DNA of 64,000 nt from Spirillospora sp. NPDC127506 (GCA_040302145.1 JBEORG010000021.1); one strand, 5' to 3'. Shown: positions 4,119 to 44,985, counted from the stretch's first letter. Made by a program: numbers and translations. Notes: a model not told the origin generated them from the letters alone.

Positions 4119-4578
4119 CCGGGGGACGGGGTGGGTGGTGGTCCCGAGCCGCGCGCGCCGCGCCCTTGGCCGGAGGGCGGCGGGACGCCGGGAATCGGGG
4201 ACCGGGAGCCGGAGCCGTCTCGCATCATCGCCCAGGGACTCGGCGGCTCCAAGTAGAACGCGTTCTATGAAAGACGGTAGGGAAAACTTCTTGTACGGTC
4301 AATGATCCAGAGGACATCTTCTGTGGATATGTTTCCCGGTCGGGCCGCAAATCCCGGTTTCGACCGTCCTTTAGCTGGTGCATCACATGTGTGCAGGCTG
4401 CATCATTTGCCGGGCGACGATCACCGCCCATGCGTCGCCAACAGCGGAGATGACAGCCCCACCGGAGATGAGAACGCGTTATATATTGTGCTCGCCGAGC
4501 CAATCCCCGCGCCGGGGAATGGCCGCGATTCGGACGACGGGTCGCCCTGTCTTTCGGATGAGCGAAACGGGTTCCCGG

Positions 4579-33524: not shown

Positions 33525-33679
33525 CTCGCTCCTCGGCGGGATCGGGCGGCCGGGCGCGCCGGCCGGTCTGCGGTCTGGCGGAAACAGTATTGAACTTTCC
33601 ACCGGTTGTACGCGTATTTCCGGCCGTGACGACACATGAGGCGACCCCGGATCGGCCTTCGGCCCGGACCGACCGGGCG

Positions 33680-35623
33680 ATGCTCGTCATCGGGGCCGCC
33701 GCGCTCGCGCTGGTCGTCCTCGCGTTCGTGCTGCGGGTCGGCGGCGCGTTCACCGCGAGCGCGACGCCGGGGCTGTCGCAGGAGGGCGCGCTGACCAAGA
33801 TCGGCCTGTCGGTCGCCAAGCTCGGCGGCGACGTCGCGGCCGTCCTCACGGTCGGCTGGCTGCTCGTCGCGGCCGCGTTCGTGCCGGGGGCGTCCCCGCT
33901 CGGCCGCCGCTGCCTGCGCGCCGCGTCGCTGACCGCGCTGCTGTGGGCGCTGTGCACGCTCGCGCTGATCGTGTGCACCGTCCTCGACCTGTTCGGGGTC
34001 GGGCTCGCGGGCGTCACCGGCGACATGATGCGGACGCTCCTCGTCGAGCTGCCGCAGGGGCGGGCGCTGCTCATCGTCCTCGCCGCCGCGGTCGCCATCG
34101 CGGTCGCGGCGAGCCTGCCGCGCGCCGCGGGCGGCGCCGGGTACCTCCTCGCGGGCGCGCTCGCCGGCATGCTGCCGCCGCTGTTCACCGGGCACGCCGC
34201 GAGCGCCTCGAACCACGCACTCGCCGTCTACAGCCTCGCCGCCCACGTGCTGGGCGTCGCGCTGTGGGTCGGCGGGCTCGTCGCCCTGGTCACCGTCGCG
34301 CCGGACGTCCGCGGCGGGCTCCCCCGGGGCGCCGGGCACCACCCCTCCCCGGACGGCCCGGACGGCGCGCGGGGCGGCCTCGTCCGGGTCGTGGAACGCT
34401 ACAGCTCCCTCGCGCTCGTCGCGTTCGCCGTCGTCGGGGTCAGCGGCGCGGTGAACGCGTGGGTGCGGCTCGGCGGCGTCCACCTCGGGTCGCGGTACGG
34501 GATGCTGGTCGTGGCGAAGGGCGCGGCGCTCGCCGCGCTCGGCGCGTTCGGCTGGTGGCACCGCCGCACCACGATCCCGGCGCTGCGGGACGGCACGGGC
34601 CCGCGCGCCTTCCTCCGGCTCGGCACGGCGGAGACCCTCGTGATGGCGGCGACGATGGCGCTCGCCGCCGGGCTGTCCAGGACGCCCACGCCCGAGAACG
34701 CCCCCGGCACCCTCGACGTCACCGCGCTCCGGCTCGGCTTCCCGCTGCCCGGCCCGGCCGGGGCGGGCCCCTACCTGCTGGACTGGTGGGTCGATCCGCT
34801 GTTCTTCGTGCTGATCGCCGCCGGGGCCGTCCTGTACGGGCTGGGCCTCGTGCGCGTCCGGGACTGGCCGCTGCGGCGGTCCGCGGCGTGGGCCGCCGGG
34901 CTGCTCGTCCTGCTGCTCGGCACCGCGAGCGGCATCTCCCGCTACAGCATGGTGCTGTTCAGCGCGCACGCGATCCAGCACGTCCTCGTCGGCGTGGCCG
35001 CGCCGGCGCTGCTGCTGTACGGCGCGCCGGTGCGGCTGGCGCTGCGGGCGATGCGCGGCGAGGGCCGGACGCTGCTCGCCGCGGCCGCCGGCAGCCGCGG
35101 CCTGCGGGCGCTCGGCCACCCGGTCGCGGCGTCGGCGCTGCTGCTGCTCACCCTCTACGCGTGGTACGCGTCGCCGCTGTTCCCGCCGTCGCTCAGCAAC
35201 CACGCCCTCCACTCGCTCGCGATGGTCGTGTTCGTCATCGTCGGGCTCGCCTACTACCGCGGGACGGCCGGGACGCTCGTCCCGCTCGCCGTCCTGCCGC
35301 TGCACGCGCTGGCCGGGATGGCGCTGACGCGGTACGGGACGGTGCTCGGCGGCGACTGGTACGGGAGCCTCGGCCGCCGCTGGGGTGCGTCACCGCTGGA
35401 CGACCAGCACCTCGGCGCCCTCCTGCTGTGGACGTCCGCGGCGGCGATCACGGCCGGCGTCGCGGCGGTGCAGGCCCGCTACGGGCGGGGGCGCCGGTCC
35501 AGCACGCGGCTGAGCGCCTCCACGACCGCCGGGTCGTACTCGGCGGCCGAGTCGAGCCTGAGCCGCTCCAGCACGGCGGCGCCCCGGTCGCGGTCGGCGG
35601 AATCGCCCACCAGGTCGTCGTAG
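33680..35623 (+). CDS. Fused copper-resistance CopD-like / cytochrome-c-oxidase assembly CtaG-like (caa3-type) polytopic membrane protein
   Basis: It has >14 hydrophobic segments. The N-terminal half is CopD-like and the C-terminal half is CtaG-like (HAIQHVLVGVAAPALLL...LHSLAMVV). The start and exact 3' end are uncertain, and the 3' end overlaps the convergent gene. Confidence 0.55.
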   Translation: MLVIGAAALALVVLAFVLRVGGAFTASATPGLSQEGALTKIGLSVAKLGGDVAAVLTVGWLLVAAAFVPGASPLGRRCLRAASLTALLWALCTLALIVCTVLDLFGVGLAGVTGDMMRTLLVELPQGRALLIVLAAAVAIAVAASLPRAAGGAGYLLAGALAGMLPPLFTGHAASASNHALAVYSLAAHVLGVALWVGGLVALVTVAPDVRGGLPRGAGHHPSPDGPDGARGGLVRVVERYSSLALVAFAVVGVSGAVNAWVRLGGVHLGSRYGMLVVAKGAALAALGAFGWWHRRTTIPALRDGTGPRAFLRLGTAETLVMAATMALAAGLSRTPTPENAPGTLDVTALRLGFPLPGPAGAGPYLLDWWVDPLFFVLIAAGAVLYGLGLVRVRDWPLRRSAAWAAGLLVLLLGTASGISRYSMVLFSAHAIQHVLVGVAAPALLLYGAPVRLALRAMRGEGRTLLAAAAGSRGLRALGHPVAASALLLLTLYAWYASPLFPPSLSNHALHSLAMVVFVIVGLAYYRGTAGTLVPLAVLPLHALAGMALTRYGTVLGGDWYGSLGRRWGASPLDDQHLGALLLWTSAAAITAGVAAVQARYGRGRRSSTRLSASTTAGSYSAAESSLSRSSTAAPRSRSAESPTRSS

Positions 35624-36810
35624 GCGTTCGCGACCTTGATGATGCGGCCCGCGAGCGGCGGCGGGATCGGCCGCTCACCGGAGTCGCCGACGGGTTCGCG
35701 GCCCGCCCGGTAGGGGTGCGAGGACAGCTGCACGATGTGCGCGACCCGGTCCAGCACCCCGGTCTGCTTGATCACCTCGGCGCCCAGCTCGGCGATGCGG
35801 CGCTGCTCGGCCGGGGACGCCAGCACGGTCGCGCCGCCGGGGATCGGGTCGCCGAGCGACAGCTGCCCGATGTCGTGCATCAGCGCCGCGTACTCCAGTT
35901 CGAGCAGCTCCTCCTCGGTCATGCCGAGCTCGCGGCCCATCGCGACCGCGAGCCGCGCCACGCGCCGCGAGTGGCCCGCCTCCACGTAGCCGCCGACCTC
36001 GGTGACCCGCGACAGCGCGCGGACCGTCTCCAGGTAGGTGGCGCGGATGCCCGCGTACCGGCGGAACGCGAACTGCGTCACCAGGATCGGCACCGTGAAG
36101 ATCAGCAGCGCGGCCTCGCCCATCGCGGTCGTGGCGACCGCGATCAGCATGGCGGTCGCGCTGGTCGCGGCGCACAGCGCCATCTTCGCGCTGATCTCGT
36201 CGCGCAGCGCGATGCCGAACCGGGCCCGGACGGTCTCCGCCCGGATCATCGCGGCGATCAGCACGTCGGTGAAGCACGACCCGATCACCACCACGCCCAT
36301 CACGGCCAGCAGCAGGTACCAGGCGAGGTCGAGGCCCAGCACCGGCCGGAAGCAGAGCGCGATGACCGCGACGGTGAACAGCCGGCGCGCCATCGCGTCC
36401 GGGCGCGGCGTGCGGCCGACCGCGATGTGCGGCAGCGAGCCGACGAGCATGCCCACCGCGGTGACCGCGACGACCTGGAGCGCGGAGTGCTCGGCCGGGA
36501 CGACGCCGAGCGGCGCGTCCGGCGGGGCGCCCTCGGGGCCGACGCCGACCAGCAGCGCGTACCCCATCGCACCGGCGCTGGCGATCGGCGCGACCTCCCG
36601 GTTGCCGGGCATCACCATGCGGAACAGCTCGCCCAGCGCGATCAGCACGCCGAAGATGATCGCGACGTTGGGCTGGTGCAGGCCGACGGCCGCGACCTGC
36701 GTGACCGCGACGACGACGAACAGCCCGGCGGTGGCGATCAGCAGCAGCTGGCCGGAGTCGATGGTCTGCCACGCGGCCCGCTCGCGGGCGGGGATCCGGC
36801 TCGTCGTCAC
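35479..36810 (-). CDS. Polytopic membrane protein with C-terminal HD (HD-GYP-related) domain
   Basis: Real frame starts at the GTG (VTTSRIPARE...) overlapping the upstream stop (GTGA). Seven TM-like segments, then an HD domain (ALMHDIGQ...). The rest of ORF 35479..38223 upstream is wrong-frame. Confidence 0.65.
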   Translation of the reverse strand: MTTSRIPARERAAWQTIDSGQLLLIATAGLFVVVAVTQVAAVGLHQPNVAIIFGVLIALGELFRMVMPGNREVAPIASAGAMGYALLVGVGPEGAPPDAPLGVVPAEHSALQVVAVTAVGMLVGSLPHIAVGRTPRPDAMARRLFTVAVIALCFRPVLGLDLAWYLLLAVMGVVVIGSCFTDVLIAAMIRAETVRARFGIALRDEISAKMALCAATSATAMLIAVATTAMGEAALLIFTVPILVTQFAFRRYAGIRATYLETVRALSRVTEVGGYVEAGHSRRVARLAVAMGRELGMTEEELLELEYAALMHDIGQLSLGDPIPGGATVLASPAEQRRIAELGAEVIKQTGVLDRVAHIVQLSSHPYRAGREPVGDSGERPIPPPLAGRIIKVANAYDDLVGDSADRDRGAAVLERLRLDSAAEYDPAVVEALSRVLDRRPRP

Positions 36811-38159
36811 TGGTGCCGCACCTCGTCGCCGCCGGTGACCCGCAGCGGCCGGCTCGGGTCGTCGTGGTCCTGCTGGGTGGTCTCGGCGACGGCGTCGTCC
36901 GGCAGGACGACCGGCCGCGGCGGCTCCCAGCCCTCCCGGTCGAGGGCCCGCAGGAACGCCTCGACCATCTCCGGGTCGAAGTGGTCGCCCATCCCGCGGC
37001 GGAGCTCGGCCACGGCCTCCTCGATGCTGCGGGCCGCCCGGTAGGAGCGGGTCGAGGTCATCGAGTCGAAGGCGTCCGCGACCGAGATGACCCGGGCGAA
37101 CTCGGGGATCTCGTCGCCGGCGAGGCCCATCGGGTAGCCGCGGCCGTTCATCTTCTCGTGGTGGTGCATGATCCCGGCGAGCGCCTCGTCCAGGAACCCG
37201 ATCTCCCGGACGATCTCCAGCCCGCGCATCGGGTGCAGCTGGATCGCGGCGAACTCCTCCTCGGTCAGCGCGCCCGACTTCTGCAGCACCTTGGTGGGGA
37301 CGCCGAGCTTGCCGACGTCGTGCAGCATCCCGGCGTAGCGGATCGCCTCGACCCGGTCGGCGCGCATCCCGATCTCCTGCGCGATCATCACCGAGCCCCG
37401 GGAGACCCGCTCGGAGTGCCCGCGGGTGTAGAAGTCCTTGGTCTCGACCGCCTGGCACAGCGCGGCGAGGGTCGCGGCGTGCGCCTGCTGCTGCGCGTAC
37501 GCCTGGTCCATCGCCCAGCGGGCGATGAACAGCGGGAGCAGGACGAGCACGGCGGCGAACGGCCCGACGCGCGGCCACAGCCCGGCGATCAGCAGGCCGA
37601 CCATGCCGTAGCCGAGGCAGCCGACGGCGAGCTGGCCGCTCTCGTGCAGCCATTCGCGCGGCGTCGTCTGCCGGCTGAGCAGCAGCACCCCGCCCATCAG
37701 CGTCAGGTTGACCAGGACGAAGGTGACCAGCGCGCCGAGGAACGGCCCGATGACGTTCTCCACCCAGCGGGCCTGCTCGGGGTGGAAGCGGGCGCCGCCG
37801 AGCAGGTCGAAGACGGTCCCGGCGATGAAGCCGCTGAGCGCGAACTGCGCACCGTTGAAGATCCGCTTGACCGGGGCGAAGAACCGCTGCCCGGTGACGA
37901 CGGCGACCAGGCCGAGCAGCGCGGCGCCGACCGGGCCGAGCAGCACCACCGAGGCCAGGCTCGCGGCGAAGCTGAGCGACACCCGGGCGCGCGCGATGTT
38001 CAGCCGCGCCGGCGCCGAGTCGCAGACGAGGAACAGCAGGGCCAGCACGGCCAGCTTGCTCCAGTCCAGCTCCGCGAAGGACGACGTCGCGATGAGCCCG
38101 GCCGCGAGGGCCACCACACCGCATACGTACGCCCAGGCAGCGAGAGGTAGTCCACGCAT
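36807..38159 (-). CDS. Membrane-anchored HD-GYP phosphodiesterase-family protein (7TM receptor + HD-GYP)
   Basis: 450 aa. MLHDVGKLGVP...HHEKMNGRGYP is the HD-GYP signature. The N-terminal half is hydrophobic. Confidence 0.75.
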   Translation of the reverse strand: MRGLPLAAWAYVCGVVALAAGLIATSSFAELDWSKLAVLALLFLVCDSAPARLNIARARVSLSFAASLASVVLLGPVGAALLGLVAVVTGQRFFAPVKRIFNGAQFALSGFIAGTVFDLLGGARFHPEQARWVENVIGPFLGALVTFVLVNLTLMGGVLLLSRQTTPREWLHESGQLAVGCLGYGMVGLLIAGLWPRVGPFAAVLVLLPLFIARWAMDQAYAQQQAHAATLAALCQAVETKDFYTRGHSERVSRGSVMIAQEIGMRADRVEAIRYAGMLHDVGKLGVPTKVLQKSGALTEEEFAAIQLHPMRGLEIVREIGFLDEALAGIMHHHEKMNGRGYPMGLAGDEIPEFARVISVADAFDSMTSTRSYRAARSIEEAVAELRRGMGDHFDPEMVEAFLRALDREGWEPPRPVVLPDDAVAETTQQDHDDPSRPLRVTGGDEVRHQ

Positions 38160-38846
38160 TGCCGCCCCTCGGGGAGTGACGAGATGGCGGGCCGCCGCCG
38201 GGGTGCTGTGCGCCTGCCGGCACCTAGACCCAGGACACGCCCTTGGTCAGCATCAGCGACGACGCCGCGGCGCTCGGGCGCCCGCCGTGTCCTGCCGGCG
38301 ACACACGCTTGAGCATGGCTCCTTGCCTCCCCCCGCCGAACCGGGCCGTCCCGGCCTCGCGGCCGACCTCCGTCCGGGGCCGGGCGCGGGCCCGGCTTCC
38401 CGGGCGAGCACATACCCCGAATTGCATCGGCGCGCACGTGCTCCCGTCGCTGATTTCGGCACAAGCTTAACGCGAACTGCCCAGGTCACACAGGCGTGAG
38501 GGAAAAACTGAGCAAAGCGTGAACCGACCGTCACCATAGGTGATCAATTGCCCCGGCGAATGCACCCAACGTAAGCGCACAACCCGATTGCACAACAGAA
38601 TGCACGTGCATCGGCGAATGCACCGGCGACCCGCGCCGAATGCGCCGGCGGCCCCGCGCCTTTTCGCCTCGGCGACCCGCGGGGTACGACGTACCGTACC
38701 TCTCGGATCAAAAAGACTCACCCCAAGGAAATGGCTACAATACGACAAGCCCGTGTTTTGGGGTATGCAGCCGAATTCTGCCGGGCGTGCGCGCGTTCTG
38801 CCGCGCCCAGACGTGTTCAGGCGTGTTCTGCCGTGTCCAGGCGTGT

Positions 38847-39794
38847 TCAGCGGCGCCCTGCGGCCCGCGCGGGATCGCGCTCGCGCGCCCAGGCGACGGT
38901 CTCGGCGATCCCCTCGGCGAGGCCCACCTTCGGCTCCCAGCCGAGCACCTCCCGCGTCGCCCGCGGGTCGACGGCCATCGCGGGCAGGTCCCCCAGCCGG
39001 GGCGGCGCGAACTCCGGGTCGTCGGGCGCGCCCGCCGCCTCGGCGACCAGCGTGTGCAGGTCGCGGTCGGTCGTCTGCACGCCGGTGCCGACGTTGAAGC
39101 GGCGCCCGCCGCCCGCGTCCCCGGCCGCGCGGGCGAACGCGTCCACGACGTCCAGGACGTAGACGTAGTCGCGGGTCTGCGTGCCGTCGCCGTAGACCTT
39201 GGTCGGGCGGCCGGACAGCAGCGCGTCGGTGAAGATGGAGACGACGCCGGCCTCGCCCTCGGGGGTCTGCCGGGGCCCGTAGACGTTCGCCAGCGTCAGG
39301 GTCGTGAAGTCGATGCCGTGCAGCCGCCGGTACATGCCCGCGTAGACCTCGCCGGAGACCTTGGAGGCCGCGTACGGCGACGCGGGCCGCAGCTCGGCGT
39401 CGGCGGGGACGGGCAGCGCGTCCGGCACCCCGTACACCGCGCAGCTGGAGGTGAACACCACCTTCCGCCCGCCGGCCGCGCGCGCGGCCTCCAGCACGTT
39501 GGCGGTGCCCAGCACGTTGGTGCGGGCGTCGGCGAGCGGGTCGGAGACGCTGGCGCGGACGCTGACCTGCGCGGCGAGATGGCAGATCACCTCGGGCCGC
39601 CGCACCGCCGCCTTCTCCACCAGCGCCGGGTCGGCGACGTCCATCTCCCACAGCTCCACGCCGGGGCGGACGTTCGCGCCGGACGTCATGTCGTCCACGC
39701 CGATGACCTCGTGGCCGTCGGCGAGGAGCCGGTCGACGAGATGGGATCCGATGAATCCGGCCGCGCCGGTGACGAGTGCGAGCACCCGCAGCAC
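38847..39794 (-). CDS. NAD-dependent epimerase/dehydratase (UDP-glucose 4-epimerase-like SDR)
   Basis: VTGAAGFIGSHLVDRLL (Rossmann), YAASK (YxxxK), ~315 aa. Confidence 0.85.
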   Translation of the reverse strand: MLRVLALVTGAAGFIGSHLVDRLLADGHEVIGVDDMTSGANVRPGVELWEMDVADPALVEKAAVRRPEVICHLAAQVSVRASVSDPLADARTNVLGTANVLEAARAAGGRKVVFTSSCAVYGVPDALPVPADAELRPASPYAASKVSGEVYAGMYRRLHGIDFTTLTLANVYGPRQTPEGEAGVVSIFTDALLSGRPTKVYGDGTQTRDYVYVLDVVDAFARAAGDAGGGRRFNVGTGVQTTDRDLHTLVAEAAGAPDDPEFAPPRLGDLPAMAVDPRATREVLGWEPKVGLAEGIAETVAWARERDPARAAGRR

Positions 39795-39939: not shown

Positions 39940-40236
39940 TCAGGCGCTCTCGGTCTTCTCCGCGCCGCCCGTGGCCTTGATCTCGCCGCAGATCTCCTCG
40001 ATCCGGCCGAGCACCTTGGACCGCAGGTCGCTCGGCGCCTGCTCGCAGCCGCAGGACTTGTTCACGAGCTTCTTGACGGCCTCTTCGAGCCCGTACTCGC
40101 GCAGGCACGGCCCGCACTCGTCGAGGTGCTGCCGGACCTCGCTGCAGCCGCCCTGGTCGAGCTCGCCGTCGAGATAGGTGTAGACGCGGGCCAGGACCTC
40201 GTCGCACGGCGTTTCGTGGTGGTTGCCGCAGCTCAT
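39940..40236 (-). CDS. rsrA: Anti-sigma factor RsrA (ZAS family, redox-sensing)
   Basis: 98 aa. HxxxCxxC ZAS motif ([12 protein letters not shown]) plus additional Cys (CGC). ATGA-coupled to sigR. Confidence 0.85.
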
Positions 40237-40997
40237 GATGACCCCCTGCCGGCGCGGGTGAGCCCGCGGTCCTCAGCGTAGTCCTCCAGCATGCCGCGGA
40301 GCTGGCGCCGGCCGCGGTGCAGGCGGGACATCACCGTACCGATGGGCGTGCCCATGATCTCGGCGATCTCCTTGTAGGCGAAGCCCTCGACGTCGGCGAG
40401 GTACACGGCGATGCGGAACTCCTCGGGGAGGTCCTGCAGCGCCCGCTTCACGTCGCTGTCGGGCAGGTGCTCCAGCGCCTCGGCCTCCGCGGACTTCAGC
40501 CCGCTCGAGGTGTGCGACTCGGCGCGGTGGATCTGCCAGTCCTCGATGTCCTCGGTGGCGGCCTGCTGCGGCTGGCGCTGCTTCTTGCGGTAGGAGTTGA
40601 TGAACGTGTTGGTCAGGATGCGGTAGAGCCACGCCTTGAGGTTCGTGCCCTCCTTGAACTGGTGGAAGGACGCGAACGCCTTGGCGAAGGTCTCCTGGAC
40701 GAGGTCCTCGGCGTCGGCCGGGTTGCGCGTCATGCGCAGCGCGGCCGAGTACAGCTGGTCCAAGAACGGGAGCACGTCGCGCTGGAACCGCTCCTGGCGC
40801 TGCTCCACGGTCTCCGTGGTGCCCGGTACCTGACCCACCCCCTCGGCTGTGGCGCCCTTGGCCCCGACTGGGCCGGCGGCGTCGTACCCCACAGACGATA
40901 TCGGTCCGCGCGGCCTTCCGATGCGGACGGGTGCGCGTGCGTCGCCCCGGATCGCCGTCCCGGCTCTCCGCTGCCCATCGGCGACGGCTGTGGTCAT
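40233..40997 (-). CDS. sigR: ECF sigma factor SigR/SigH (thiol-oxidative stress); long ORF from ATG 40997 with probable shorter isoform start near 40838 (VGQVPGTTE...)
   Basis: [36 protein letters not shown]... (region 2) and a region 4 HTH ([15 protein letters not shown]). A GGAAT-N18-GTT promoter lies just upstream of the 40997 ATG. Confidence 0.85.
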
Positions 40998-41034: not shown

Positions 41035-41060
41035 CAACACCGGAACGGCCCCGCCGATTC
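41035..41060 (-). promoter_or_regulatory. SigR/SigH-type promoter (GGAAT-N18-GTT) upstream of sigR
   Basis: The reverse complement reads GGGAATcggcggggccgttccggtGTTgca. This is an exact match to the sigmaR consensus with an 18-nt spacer, ~40 nt upstream of the 40997 ATG. Confidence 0.7.
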
Positions 41061-41117
41061 CCGGAGCGGCCCGCCGGCGGGTCACTCAGGGTGATGACCG
41101 GCCCCGGACGGGGAAGG

Positions 41118-44391: not shown

Positions 44392-44985
44392 ATGGCCCTT
44401 CCCGGATCGACCGGTCGCCCGACCGGCGGGCTGCGGAGCCTGCTCCGCCGCCCCGGCACGGCGCGGCCGCCATCGGCCGCGAGCGACGAGGAGATCGTCG
44501 CGGAGCTGTACCGCGAGTACCATCGGCCCCTCCTCGCGTTCGTGCTCCGGCTCACCGGCGGTGACCGCCAGTGGGCCGAGGACGTGGTGCAGGAGACCAT
44601 GATCAGGGCGTGGCGCAGCGCGGACCGGCTGGACGACCGGACGTCCTCGCTGATGCCGTGGCTGGCCACGGTCTCCCGGCGTATCGTGATCGACAACCGG
44701 CGGCAGCGCGAGGTCAGGCCGCCGGAGGTCGGCGACGGCCCCCTGGAGAACCTCCCGATGGCGGACGAGATGGACGGCCTGCTGCGCAAGGTCGTGGTGA
44801 CGGAGGCGCTGGAGTCCCTCTCCCCCGCGCATCGGCAGGCGCTGACGGAGACGGTGCTGCGCGACCGTACGGTGAACCAGGCCGCCGAGTACCTCGGCAT
44901 CCCGGTCGGGACGGTCAAGTCCCGCGTGTACTACGCGCTGCGCGCCCTGCGCGTCGCCTTGGAGGAGAGGGGGGTGACCTCATGA
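44392..44985 (+). CDS. ECF (sigma-70 family) RNA polymerase sigma factor
   Basis: Region 2 (EELYREYHRPLLAFVLRLTG...AEDVVQETMIRAW) and region 4 (VNQAAEYLGIPVGTVKSRVYYALRAL). Confidence 0.8.
   Translation: MALPGSTGRPTGGLRSLLRRPGTARPPSAASDEEIVAELYREYHRPLLAFVLRLTGGDRQWAEDVVQETMIRAWRSADRLDDRTSSLMPWLATVSRRIVIDNRRQREVRPPEVGDGPLENLPMADEMDGLLRKVVVTEALESLSPAHRQALTETVLRDRTVNQAAEYLGIPVGTVKSRVYYALRALRVALEERGVTS

Follow-up and report, generated by a model that had tools for sequence, protein, structure and literature searches.

The gene pair hdgA-hdgB of Spirillospora sp. NPDC127506 (GCA_040302145.1, contig JBEORG010000021.1), located in a 64 kb stretch of DNA referred to here as the window, was found to be preceded by a control region whose main features were conserved across genera. 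hdgA (36807-38159, minus strand) encoded a protein of 450 amino acids with an intact HD-GYP domain, hdgB (35479-36810, minus strand) a protein of 443 amino acids with an HD domain, and a gap of 687 bp separated hdgA from the epimerase gene upstream. Three features of this gap were shared between genera: a block of 11-nt direct repeats followed by a putative -10 element, a box for the regulator BldD, and a short upstream open reading frame (uORF) ending in G(V/I)SWx-stop. They are best read together as a promoter controlled by BldD and by an activator, coupled to a uORF that would gate translation of hdgA-hdgB through its own peptide, a reading which the conservation pattern makes probable. None of the three features had been noticed in the initial annotation of this DNA, made from the sequence of the window alone, which had described the gene pair and a series of repeats further upstream. 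The literature searches did not retrieve any leader peptide or uORF described for HD-GYP genes, and this combination of leader peptide and promoter architecture is apparently undescribed.

The comparison set comprised 80 related loci from the Thermomonosporaceae and Streptosporangiaceae (labelled L001, L005, etc.). Seventy-three of them carried the hdgA-hdgB pair (hereafter syntenic loci), and the other seven carried a lone HD-GYP paralogue elsewhere in the genome, not beside sigR. The upstream gap was aligned from 15 Actinomadura genomes and then compared over all 80 loci. Four Streptomyces sigR-rsrA-hdgA-hdgB loci, retrieved via RsrA, were also included. The hdgA orthologues of the syntenic loci were 58-97% identical, and the best database matches placed the organism in Actinomadura, with 97% amino-acid identity to Actinomadura sp. 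BRA 177.

The most widely conserved non-coding part of the gap was a block of three 11-nt direct repeats, GGTGACGGTCG, GTTCACGCTTT and GCTCAGTTTTT (38503-38535, minus strand). Seventy of the 73 syntenic loci had a recognisable form of it, with no more than 4 of 13 core positions altered, and the paralogue and Streptomyces loci had none. Over the loci the block read GGTGACGATTG, GTTCACGCTTT and GCTCACGATTC, the third unit being degenerate in the window. A blastn search with 38535-38463 gave matches in distant genera, and the promoter block is common to the sampled Thermomonosporaceae and Streptosporangiaceae. About 33 nt beyond the repeats was a predicted -10 element, TAAGCT (TANNNT; 38464-38469, minus strand), aligned in the relatives with TAGGCT, TAGCCT, TACCCT, TATCCT, TAGTCT, TACGCT and TAGCGT, so that the first T, the A and the last T were fixed. 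A fixed T, A and T around a free middle is the actinobacterial -10 pattern in published start maps. In four Nonomuraea loci (L066, L068, L077 and L080) the ATG of the uORF was located 7 nt past the hexamer, without a Shine-Dalgarno sequence, and the leader peptide would be translated there from a leaderless mRNA. On the basis of the -10 pattern and of this leaderless geometry, the transcription start was placed near 38457, about 7 nt past the -10 element, with the direct repeats at about -78 to -47 and helically phased. The promoter was inferred from conservation because a scan of 38000-39000 for intrinsic terminators and sigma-70 promoters gave no match.

The position of the repeats and their 11-bp phasing suggested a response-regulator-type activator, and the block is tentatively considered a putative site for a winged-helix protein of this kind. 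Its units resembled the sites of the OmpR/PhoB family, such as those of MtrA, in their 11-bp phasing, in the nT(G/C)AC core and in their location upstream of the -35 region; AfsQ1, GlnR and PhoP are further direct-repeat regulators of this family. Only repeat 1 (GTGACG) fitted the MtrA consensus, (G/T)T(G/A)ACC-N5-GT(G/T)ACN (PMC5650626), well, the other units matching the loose nT(G/C)AC core, and the regulator was therefore left unnamed. The invariant part of the block, ACGCTTTGCT..CGATT, was outside any published consensus that could be checked.

A canonical BldD box, TCAC-CTATG-GTGA (TCACCTATGGTGA; 38531-38543, minus strand), overlapped direct repeat 1, its right half-site being part of the repeat. 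The BldD consensus is 5'-TNAC(N)5GTNA-3', and the box crystallised with the protein is TCACGCTGCGTGA (PMC4151990); the box in the window agreed with the consensus, and its half-sites were equal to those of the crystallised box. Three strict boxes were present in the window, against 0.6 expected. The half-sites were unchanged in 20 loci of the Actinomadura clade, which carried 11 different spacers, and the window contributed a twelfth. In 926 kb of related loci, 29 strict boxes were found, 25 of them upstream of HD-GYP genes: 20 at the homologous site, 4 at lone paralogues and 1 in Microtetraspora. Binding of BldD to the box before hdgA is a prediction that we hold with slightly more belief than doubt; the window contained no bldD gene, and hdgA was not reported as a BldD target in the literature found. 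The box resembled those of Streptomyces promoters repressed by BldD-(c-di-GMP), i.e. BldD bound to cyclic di-GMP (c-di-GMP), such as bldM and whiG, in its 13-bp length, its exact TCAC...GTGA half-sites and its free 5-bp spacer, here before a c-di-GMP turnover gene. It differed in its position at about -80, where it overlapped a putative activator site, not the core promoter.

BldD boxes were also seen at other genes. The lone paralogues L027, L033, L036 and L042 had no uORF, and a strict box lay some 48-91 nt from the start codon of each, an arrangement suggestive of direct repression by BldD. In the window, a second canonical box (TCACTCAGGGTGA, 41082-41094) was located about 20 nt upstream of the SigR-type motif described below, with a strict box at the matching place in L005 and L019, which suggests a BldD input into sigR too. 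The third strict BldD-type box of the window (TCACCGGCGGTGA, 44552-44564) was among several overlapping ORFs.

A different set of repeats had been proposed in the initial annotation as operator sites, or as a small RNA, for the HD-GYP genes. The features on which this proposal rested were all present: a low-GC upstream region of about 690 bp (GC 0.63-0.69 over 38250-38850, vs. 0.72-0.81 in the flanks), four repeat copies, a palindrome and three copies of CGTGTTCWG. GAATGCRC was found at 38558, 38598, 38616 and 38638, which were four of the five copies in the window and were all inside 88 bp; the total in the window was not above chance, but the clustering was. On the minus strand these four GYGCATTC repeats, including the palindrome (38558-38645), were located about 150 nt upstream of the predicted start. 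The perfect 12-nt palindrome ATGCACGTGCAT (38600-38611) had no other copy in the window. Its core was kept in 14 loci of the Actinomadura clade and nowhere else among 86 loci, and the two GTGCATT copies flanking it were also kept in this clade only, which makes a single clade-specific site, possibly for a dimeric regulator, a plausible candidate. Among known regulators, no match to the palindrome could be assigned. The part of the operator proposal concerning the palindrome was thus supported, while the remaining repeats did not hold up in the relatives. The distal GAATGCGC copy (38638-38645) and the CGTGTTCWG array were both missing in the closest relatives (L001, L005 and L019), and the palindrome itself was not found in Actinoallomurus, Actinocorallia, Thermomonospora or the Streptosporangiaceae, whose loci have the rest of the control region.

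The CGTGTTCWG copies (38812, 38822 and 38842, vs. 0.7 expected in the whole window) were included in a 10-nt tandem array (38791-38850, minus strand) which began at the epimerase stop codon and was resolved by Tandem Repeats Finder into a period of 10 (4.3 copies) and a period of 30 (2 copies). The array was private to this genome, L001, L005 and L019 having none. A different array, with CGCACCGCCTGACCGG-like units of about 16 nt, was present at the equivalent place in L013 (A. nitritigenes CA-153451, about 4290-4400). An unrelated array at the matching spot points to a site prone to slippage or duplication, and the repeats are probably slippage products rather than a signal. The small-RNA part of the proposal found no support, and neither did a known riboswitch: there was nothing at gathering score in Rfam over the whole window, and only chance-level matches (E up to 10) over 37900-39100, and the scan mentioned above showed neither a promoter nor a terminator from which a small RNA of its own could be made. 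Taken as a whole, the proposal that the GAATGCAC/GCGC and CGTGTTC(A/T)G repeats are the main operators of the HD-GYP genes, or a small RNA, is unlikely. The low-GC stretch of about 140 bp between the two sets of repeats (38650-38790) had a counterpart in A. formosensis (L005) alone; within it were an inverted repeat, GGTACG...CGTACC, and the hexamer TATTGT.

The uORF, MLKRVSPAGHGGRPSAAASSLMLTKGVSWV-stop (38224-38316, minus strand), was preceded by a GGAGG sequence (38326-38330) nine nt before its ATG. Of the 73 syntenic loci, 62 had the broad form of its C-terminus, G-[VITA]-[STAV]-W-x-stop, which none of the 7 paralogue loci had. The strict form, G[VI]SWx-stop, gave 61 matches when 990 kb were scanned in six frames, every one of them upstream of hdgA. 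The stop codon of the uORF was 16-160 nt (mostly 16-64 nt) from the hdgA start. uORF length was variable: 8 codons in Actinoallomurus (MRxGVSWA), 16 in Streptosporangium (MLKETVTPVFPGISWT), around 30 in Actinomadura, Actinocorallia and Nonomuraea, and up to about 60 in other relatives. Initiation in the relatives was from a GGAGG-type Shine-Dalgarno sequence or from a leaderless ATG. Conservation was limited to the two ends of the peptide, its start (often MLK or MLR) and its final five residues, and the length differences in the middle of the alignment were multiples of three.

Codon usage at the uORF tail was analysed in 57 unique sequences, from loci picked by the peptide pattern. The Gly codon was GGC, GGG or GGT and the Val/Ile codon GTG, GTC, GTT, ATC or ATT; positions 1-2 were fixed, and the third-position entropy (H) was 1.28 for Gly and 1.60 for Val/Ile. 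The Trp was invariant and the residue after it was free (V, T, A, G, D or I). All three stop codons were used (TGA 35, TAG 21 and TAA 1), always exactly one codon past the Trp. Distant variants kept G..W, not the nucleotides (GGT ACA TCG TGG and GGC ACC GTA TGG). Judged from these patterns, the uORF is very likely translated and selected as a peptide, and it probably regulates hdgA in cis. The uORF was annotated as "hypothetical protein" where gene callers had called it at all, and eight versions of the peptide did not match any Pfam or NCBIfam family beyond chance.

The peptide might also act in trans as a micro-protein, e.g. a membrane peptide binding the MASE9-type domains of HdgA and HdgB. 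It was always encoded beside two polytopic membrane proteins, and a hydrophobic core resembling a transmembrane segment preceded PxGVSW in Actinocorallia, Nonomuraea, Sphaerisporangium and some metagenome-assembled genomes (e.g. MLRYVSFVVLQAAAVAAVLLTEPMGVSWV). However, the Actinoallomurus form has 8 amino acids, the Streptosporangium form has 16 without any hydrophobic stretch, the Actinomadura form is polar, and the peptide matched no family. Since conservation was restricted to the last five residues and the stop position, the pattern fits a peptide that works in the exit tunnel or at the peptidyl-transferase centre better than one that folds or inserts into the membrane as a partner, and a micro-protein is improbable.

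Another explanation is that GGNRTNTCCTGGNNNTRR is conserved as RNA or DNA, for instance as a hairpin or a protein site, and that the reading frame around it is incidental. UCCUGG was nearly invariant, including the third base of the Ser codon (TCC in 52 of the 57 unique sequences), and an upstream CCNGG can pair with CCUGG in many lineages. The helix potential was close to that of shuffled sequences (4.88 bp around the Ser-Trp codons vs. 4.42 bp in shuffles), and a local RNA hairpin therefore does not explain the GVSW motif. The freedom of the Gly and Val/Ile codons at position 3, the use of three stop codons in a fixed register, the Shine-Dalgarno sequence or leaderless ATG always opening the same frame, the indels in multiples of three and the distant variants described above also argue against it. 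This explanation is very unlikely for the stretch as a whole; an RNA-level constraint added to the Ser codon is possible.

The stretch from the predicted start to the uORF would form a structured 5' leader (38317-38459, minus strand). Its 5' end, GAAATCAGCGACGGGA, was invariant in the 15 Actinomadura loci, and its length varied from about 140 nt in Actinomadura to about 25 nt in Streptosporangium. The consensus fold consisted of GC-rich hairpins with some AU/GC/GU exchanges, and the leader did not belong to any Rfam family. A further hairpin, GUGCC-GGCA-GGCGC (38210-38223, minus strand), predicted by alifold from 17 Actinomadura sequences, started one nt past the uORF stop; it persisted in relatives with other base pairs (GCGCC/GGCGC), and longer stems were seen in L009 and L025. 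In the hdgA ribosome-binding region (38161-38176, minus strand), CUCCCC (38171-38176) abutted GAGGGG (38165-38170), and GGCGGC (38161-38166), which overlaps the two final G of GAGGGG, can pair with GCUGCC in hdgA codons 8-10, as read from the sequence and the consensus folds. L021 had CUCC/GGAG at the equivalent place, and the pairing at the ribosome-binding site is, at best, weakly indicated and lineage-specific. A single conserved fold joining the uORF to the hdgA start in all genera was sought, and only lineage-specific hairpins were found. In four Actinomadura/Spirillospora loci (L002, L003, L006 and L011) the spacer between the uORF stop and the hdgA start was stretched to 129-160 nt by some 70-95 nt of inserted sequence, whose ends were inverted (GAACA...TGTTC) and which could be a small mobile hairpin element.

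In the reading we favour, transcription would begin at the operon's own promoter, about 7 nt past the TANNNT hexamer, with an activator on the three repeats. In Actinomadura, BldD-(c-di-GMP) bound to the box would sit on the putative activator site, because box and repeat 1 overlap; at high c-di-GMP it would shut the promoter or block the activator, and falling c-di-GMP would release the phosphodiesterase operon. The palindrome at about -150 may add a clade-specific input. Once the uORF is translated, the nascent G-(V/I)-S-W-x would act in cis at the peptidyl-transferase centre or exit tunnel with the stop codon in the A site, as in TnaC and SpeFL, and delay release. The ribosome held there would govern access to the ribosome-binding site of hdgA, which follows 16-64 nt further on; it could melt local hairpins, occlude the site or allow termination-reinitiation. 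A parked ribosome would extend about 12 nt past this point. Where the spacing is 16-36 nt, as in Nonomuraea, Actinoallomurus and Streptosporangium, it may touch or uncover the hdgA Shine-Dalgarno sequence; the hdgA start is often TTG or GTG in these genera, and termination-reinitiation may therefore be relied on. In Actinomadura, with a spacing of about 63 nt, the effect would pass through RNA structure (the post-stop hairpin and the ribosome-binding-site pairings). Stalling may switch hdgA on or off, and low HdgA abundance would fit a mainly repressive leader. The identity of the genes, their synteny, the conservation patterns and the selection on codons follow directly from the data, while the transcription start, the protein-DNA contacts, the stalling of ribosomes and the direction in which hdgA is regulated are inferred from sequence comparison.

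The leader might in addition be a ligand-sensing arrest peptide, in which G-(V/I)-S-W-x and the exit tunnel would sense a small molecule, c-di-GMP or a breakdown product being the most attractive candidates, and tune translation of the operon; we give this little credence, and if true it would constitute a ribosome-based second-messenger sensor added to the control of the promoter by BldD. Actinobacteria are known to have leaders with Trp codons (mentioned in PMC4833913), and an invariant UGG two codons before the stop recalls them, but the uORF can hardly be a classical amino-acid attenuator sensing tryptophanyl-tRNA, as it has a single Trp codon, its Gly, Val/Ile and Ser are equally conserved and unneeded for tRNA sensing, no terminator-like hairpin and U-tract follow it, and it is not evident how tryptophan supply would bear on a phosphodiesterase of c-di-GMP.

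Several observations weigh against the combined promoter and leader-peptide reading. For the peptide, selecting the loci by the peptide pattern makes the entropies at the first two codon positions partly circular, and the Ser codon was more uniform than a free synonymous site would be. The uORF was absent, with the promoter block kept, from Thermomonospora (L014 and L026) and from the Spirillospora locus L022. Variant tails were also present, GVVWGLP-stop in two metagenome-assembled genomes and a read-through, GRVSWVR, in two others. The 16-160 nt range between the uORF stop and the hdgA start implies that no single steric mechanism fits all lineages. For the promoter, the generic actinobacterial GTnAC-n6-GTnAC pattern was matched by repeat 1 only, the left half-site of the BldD box was confined to the Actinomadura clade, and a position at about -80 is unusual for a simple repressor. 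Finally, neither the uORF nor the promoter block was found in the four Streptomyces loci examined, Streptomyces being the sole genus with hdgA experiments; the published Streptomyces data therefore cannot test the new features.

Short leader ORFs which stall ribosomes at or near their stop codon include E. coli TnaC, SpeFL and the fungal arginine attenuator peptide, and a Trp is important in TnaC. The uORF resembled this class in being a short ORF in a 5' leader, just upstream of the putatively regulated gene, with C-terminal conservation beside a stop in fixed register. It differed in having no sequence similarity to these peptides and a minimal form of 8 codons, and stalling is predicted here from the sequence. 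No Rho or terminator element was identified for the uORF. In ErmCL and MifM, the stalled ribosome remodels an mRNA hairpin which hides the downstream ribosome-binding site, and MifM has an N-terminal hydrophobic segment. The hairpin that follows the uORF stop and those predicted where hdgA translation begins, at its Shine-Dalgarno sequence and start codon, are reminiscent of these systems, as is the N-terminal hydrophobic segment of some of the peptides; unlike in ErmCL and MifM, the hairpins were weak and lineage-specific, the hydrophobic segment was absent in most lineages, and the downstream genes were not resistance or insertase genes.

Among the c-di-GMP proteins of sporulating actinomycetes, HdgA and HdgB are the ones least understood, and the conserved control region offers testable handles on when they are made: the probable activator site, the BldD box and the five-residue leader signature. 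The BldD box would tie a phosphodiesterase gene to c-di-GMP levels. The leader peptide would add a very short family (8 codons in its minimal form) to the few bacterial peptides considered to act on their own ribosome, from a phylum in which few such peptides are known.

The identity of the genes was established from Pfam and Protein Data Bank alignments, from synteny with Streptomyces and from the equal 4-nt overlap. As had been annotated, two membrane HD genes were arranged in tandem, the GTG start of hdgB (36810) overlapping the hdgA TGA as GTGA, and the first protein carried the full HHEKMNGRGYP signature. HdgA matched Pfam HD_5 with 133 bits (E 9.5e-39, cut-off 27.2) and contained MHHHEKMNGRGYP. 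Aligned to PmGH (4MCW) and V-cGAP3 (5Z7C), HdgA retained the H, HD, H, HHE, D, GYP and RxYR motifs, in the forms GH, LHDVGK, LHP, HHHE, GRGYP, ADAFD and RSYR; the additional N-terminal Glu of trinuclear enzymes was absent from HdgA in this alignment (DFYT there). Its match to MASE9 was weak (19.3 bits, E 0.0012, under the 24.3 cut-off). HdgB matched an HD domain with 47 bits (E 3.7e-12) and kept the first His and the HD motif, with HHE and GYP lost; relative to HdgA and the structural chains, HHHE was replaced by SSHP, GRGYP by GR-EP (the second HD domain had correctly been annotated as having no clear GYP); the Lys that follows HD was a Gln, and ANAYD stood in place of ADAFD. Both proteins had about six or more hydrophobic segments in their first 220-240 residues or so. 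By these residues, HdgA is predicted to be a membrane-bound HD-GYP c-di-GMP phosphodiesterase and HdgB its catalytically degenerate paralogue, and the two genes very probably form one operon. NCBI holds a protein 95% identical to HdgA under the title [quoted passage not shown]; the record very probably derives from a contaminated or mislabelled assembly, and its name is very probably wrong.

The pair is almost certainly orthologous to Streptomyces hdgA and hdgB. In S. venezuelae, hdgA (vnz24090) encodes a 6TM-HD-GYP protein (six transmembrane segments, TM) and hdgB (vnz24095) a 6TM-degenerate HD-GYP protein, in one operon (PMC6205966); the S. coelicolor HdgA is SCO5218. The pairing of an intact with a degenerate domain, which had been annotated as typical of c-di-GMP signalling modules, is thus the published HdgA/HdgB architecture, and the gene pair is not new, its earlier reading being correct. 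HdgA is among the least abundant proteins in Streptomyces, and the deletion mutants have no developmental phenotype (PMC6205966). An HD-GYP survey preprint places MASE9 on S. venezuelae HdgA and reports c-di-GMP hydrolysis by this protein, as a personal communication only (10.1101/2021.11.05.467447). The Streptomyces pair is alike in its place downstream of sigR-rsrA, in its order, a membrane protein with an intact HD-GYP followed by a membrane protein with an HD-GYP without GYP, and in the 4-nt start/stop overlap. It differs in that rsrA and hdgA are only 120-150 bp apart, with no direct repeats of this kind and no GVSW uORF in the spacer; in the window an epimerase gene and the 690-bp control region intervene. 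At the RxxK position, the window HdgA has RSYR, while RxxS was reported in S. venezuelae HdgA (10.1101/2021.11.05.467447).

Upstream of the gap were genes for a NAD-dependent sugar epimerase/dehydratase (38847-39794), the mycothiol-system anti-sigma factor RsrA (39940-40236; TIGR03988, E 2e-30) and an extracytoplasmic function (ECF) sigma factor of the SigH/SigR family, sigR (40233-40997; TIGR02947, E 7e-108), all on the minus strand. sigR-rsrA was located upstream, with the epimerase gene present or not, in nearly all the hdgA-hdgB loci with enough upstream contig. Only one promoter motif of the SigR type, GGAAT-N18-GTT, was present in the window; it was in front of sigR (41036-41061, minus strand), as expected for autoregulation; when the window was scanned for GGAAT-N16-19-GTT, no SigR-type promoter was found upstream of hdgA. 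At the other end of the operon, a convergent ORF of the CopD/CtaG family (33590-35623, plus strand), as listed, ran about 145 nt into hdgB at its 3' end. Its Pfam match stopped about 50 residues before the end of the ORF, and the real overlap may be shorter; a similar overlap was seen among the tblastn matches in L001.

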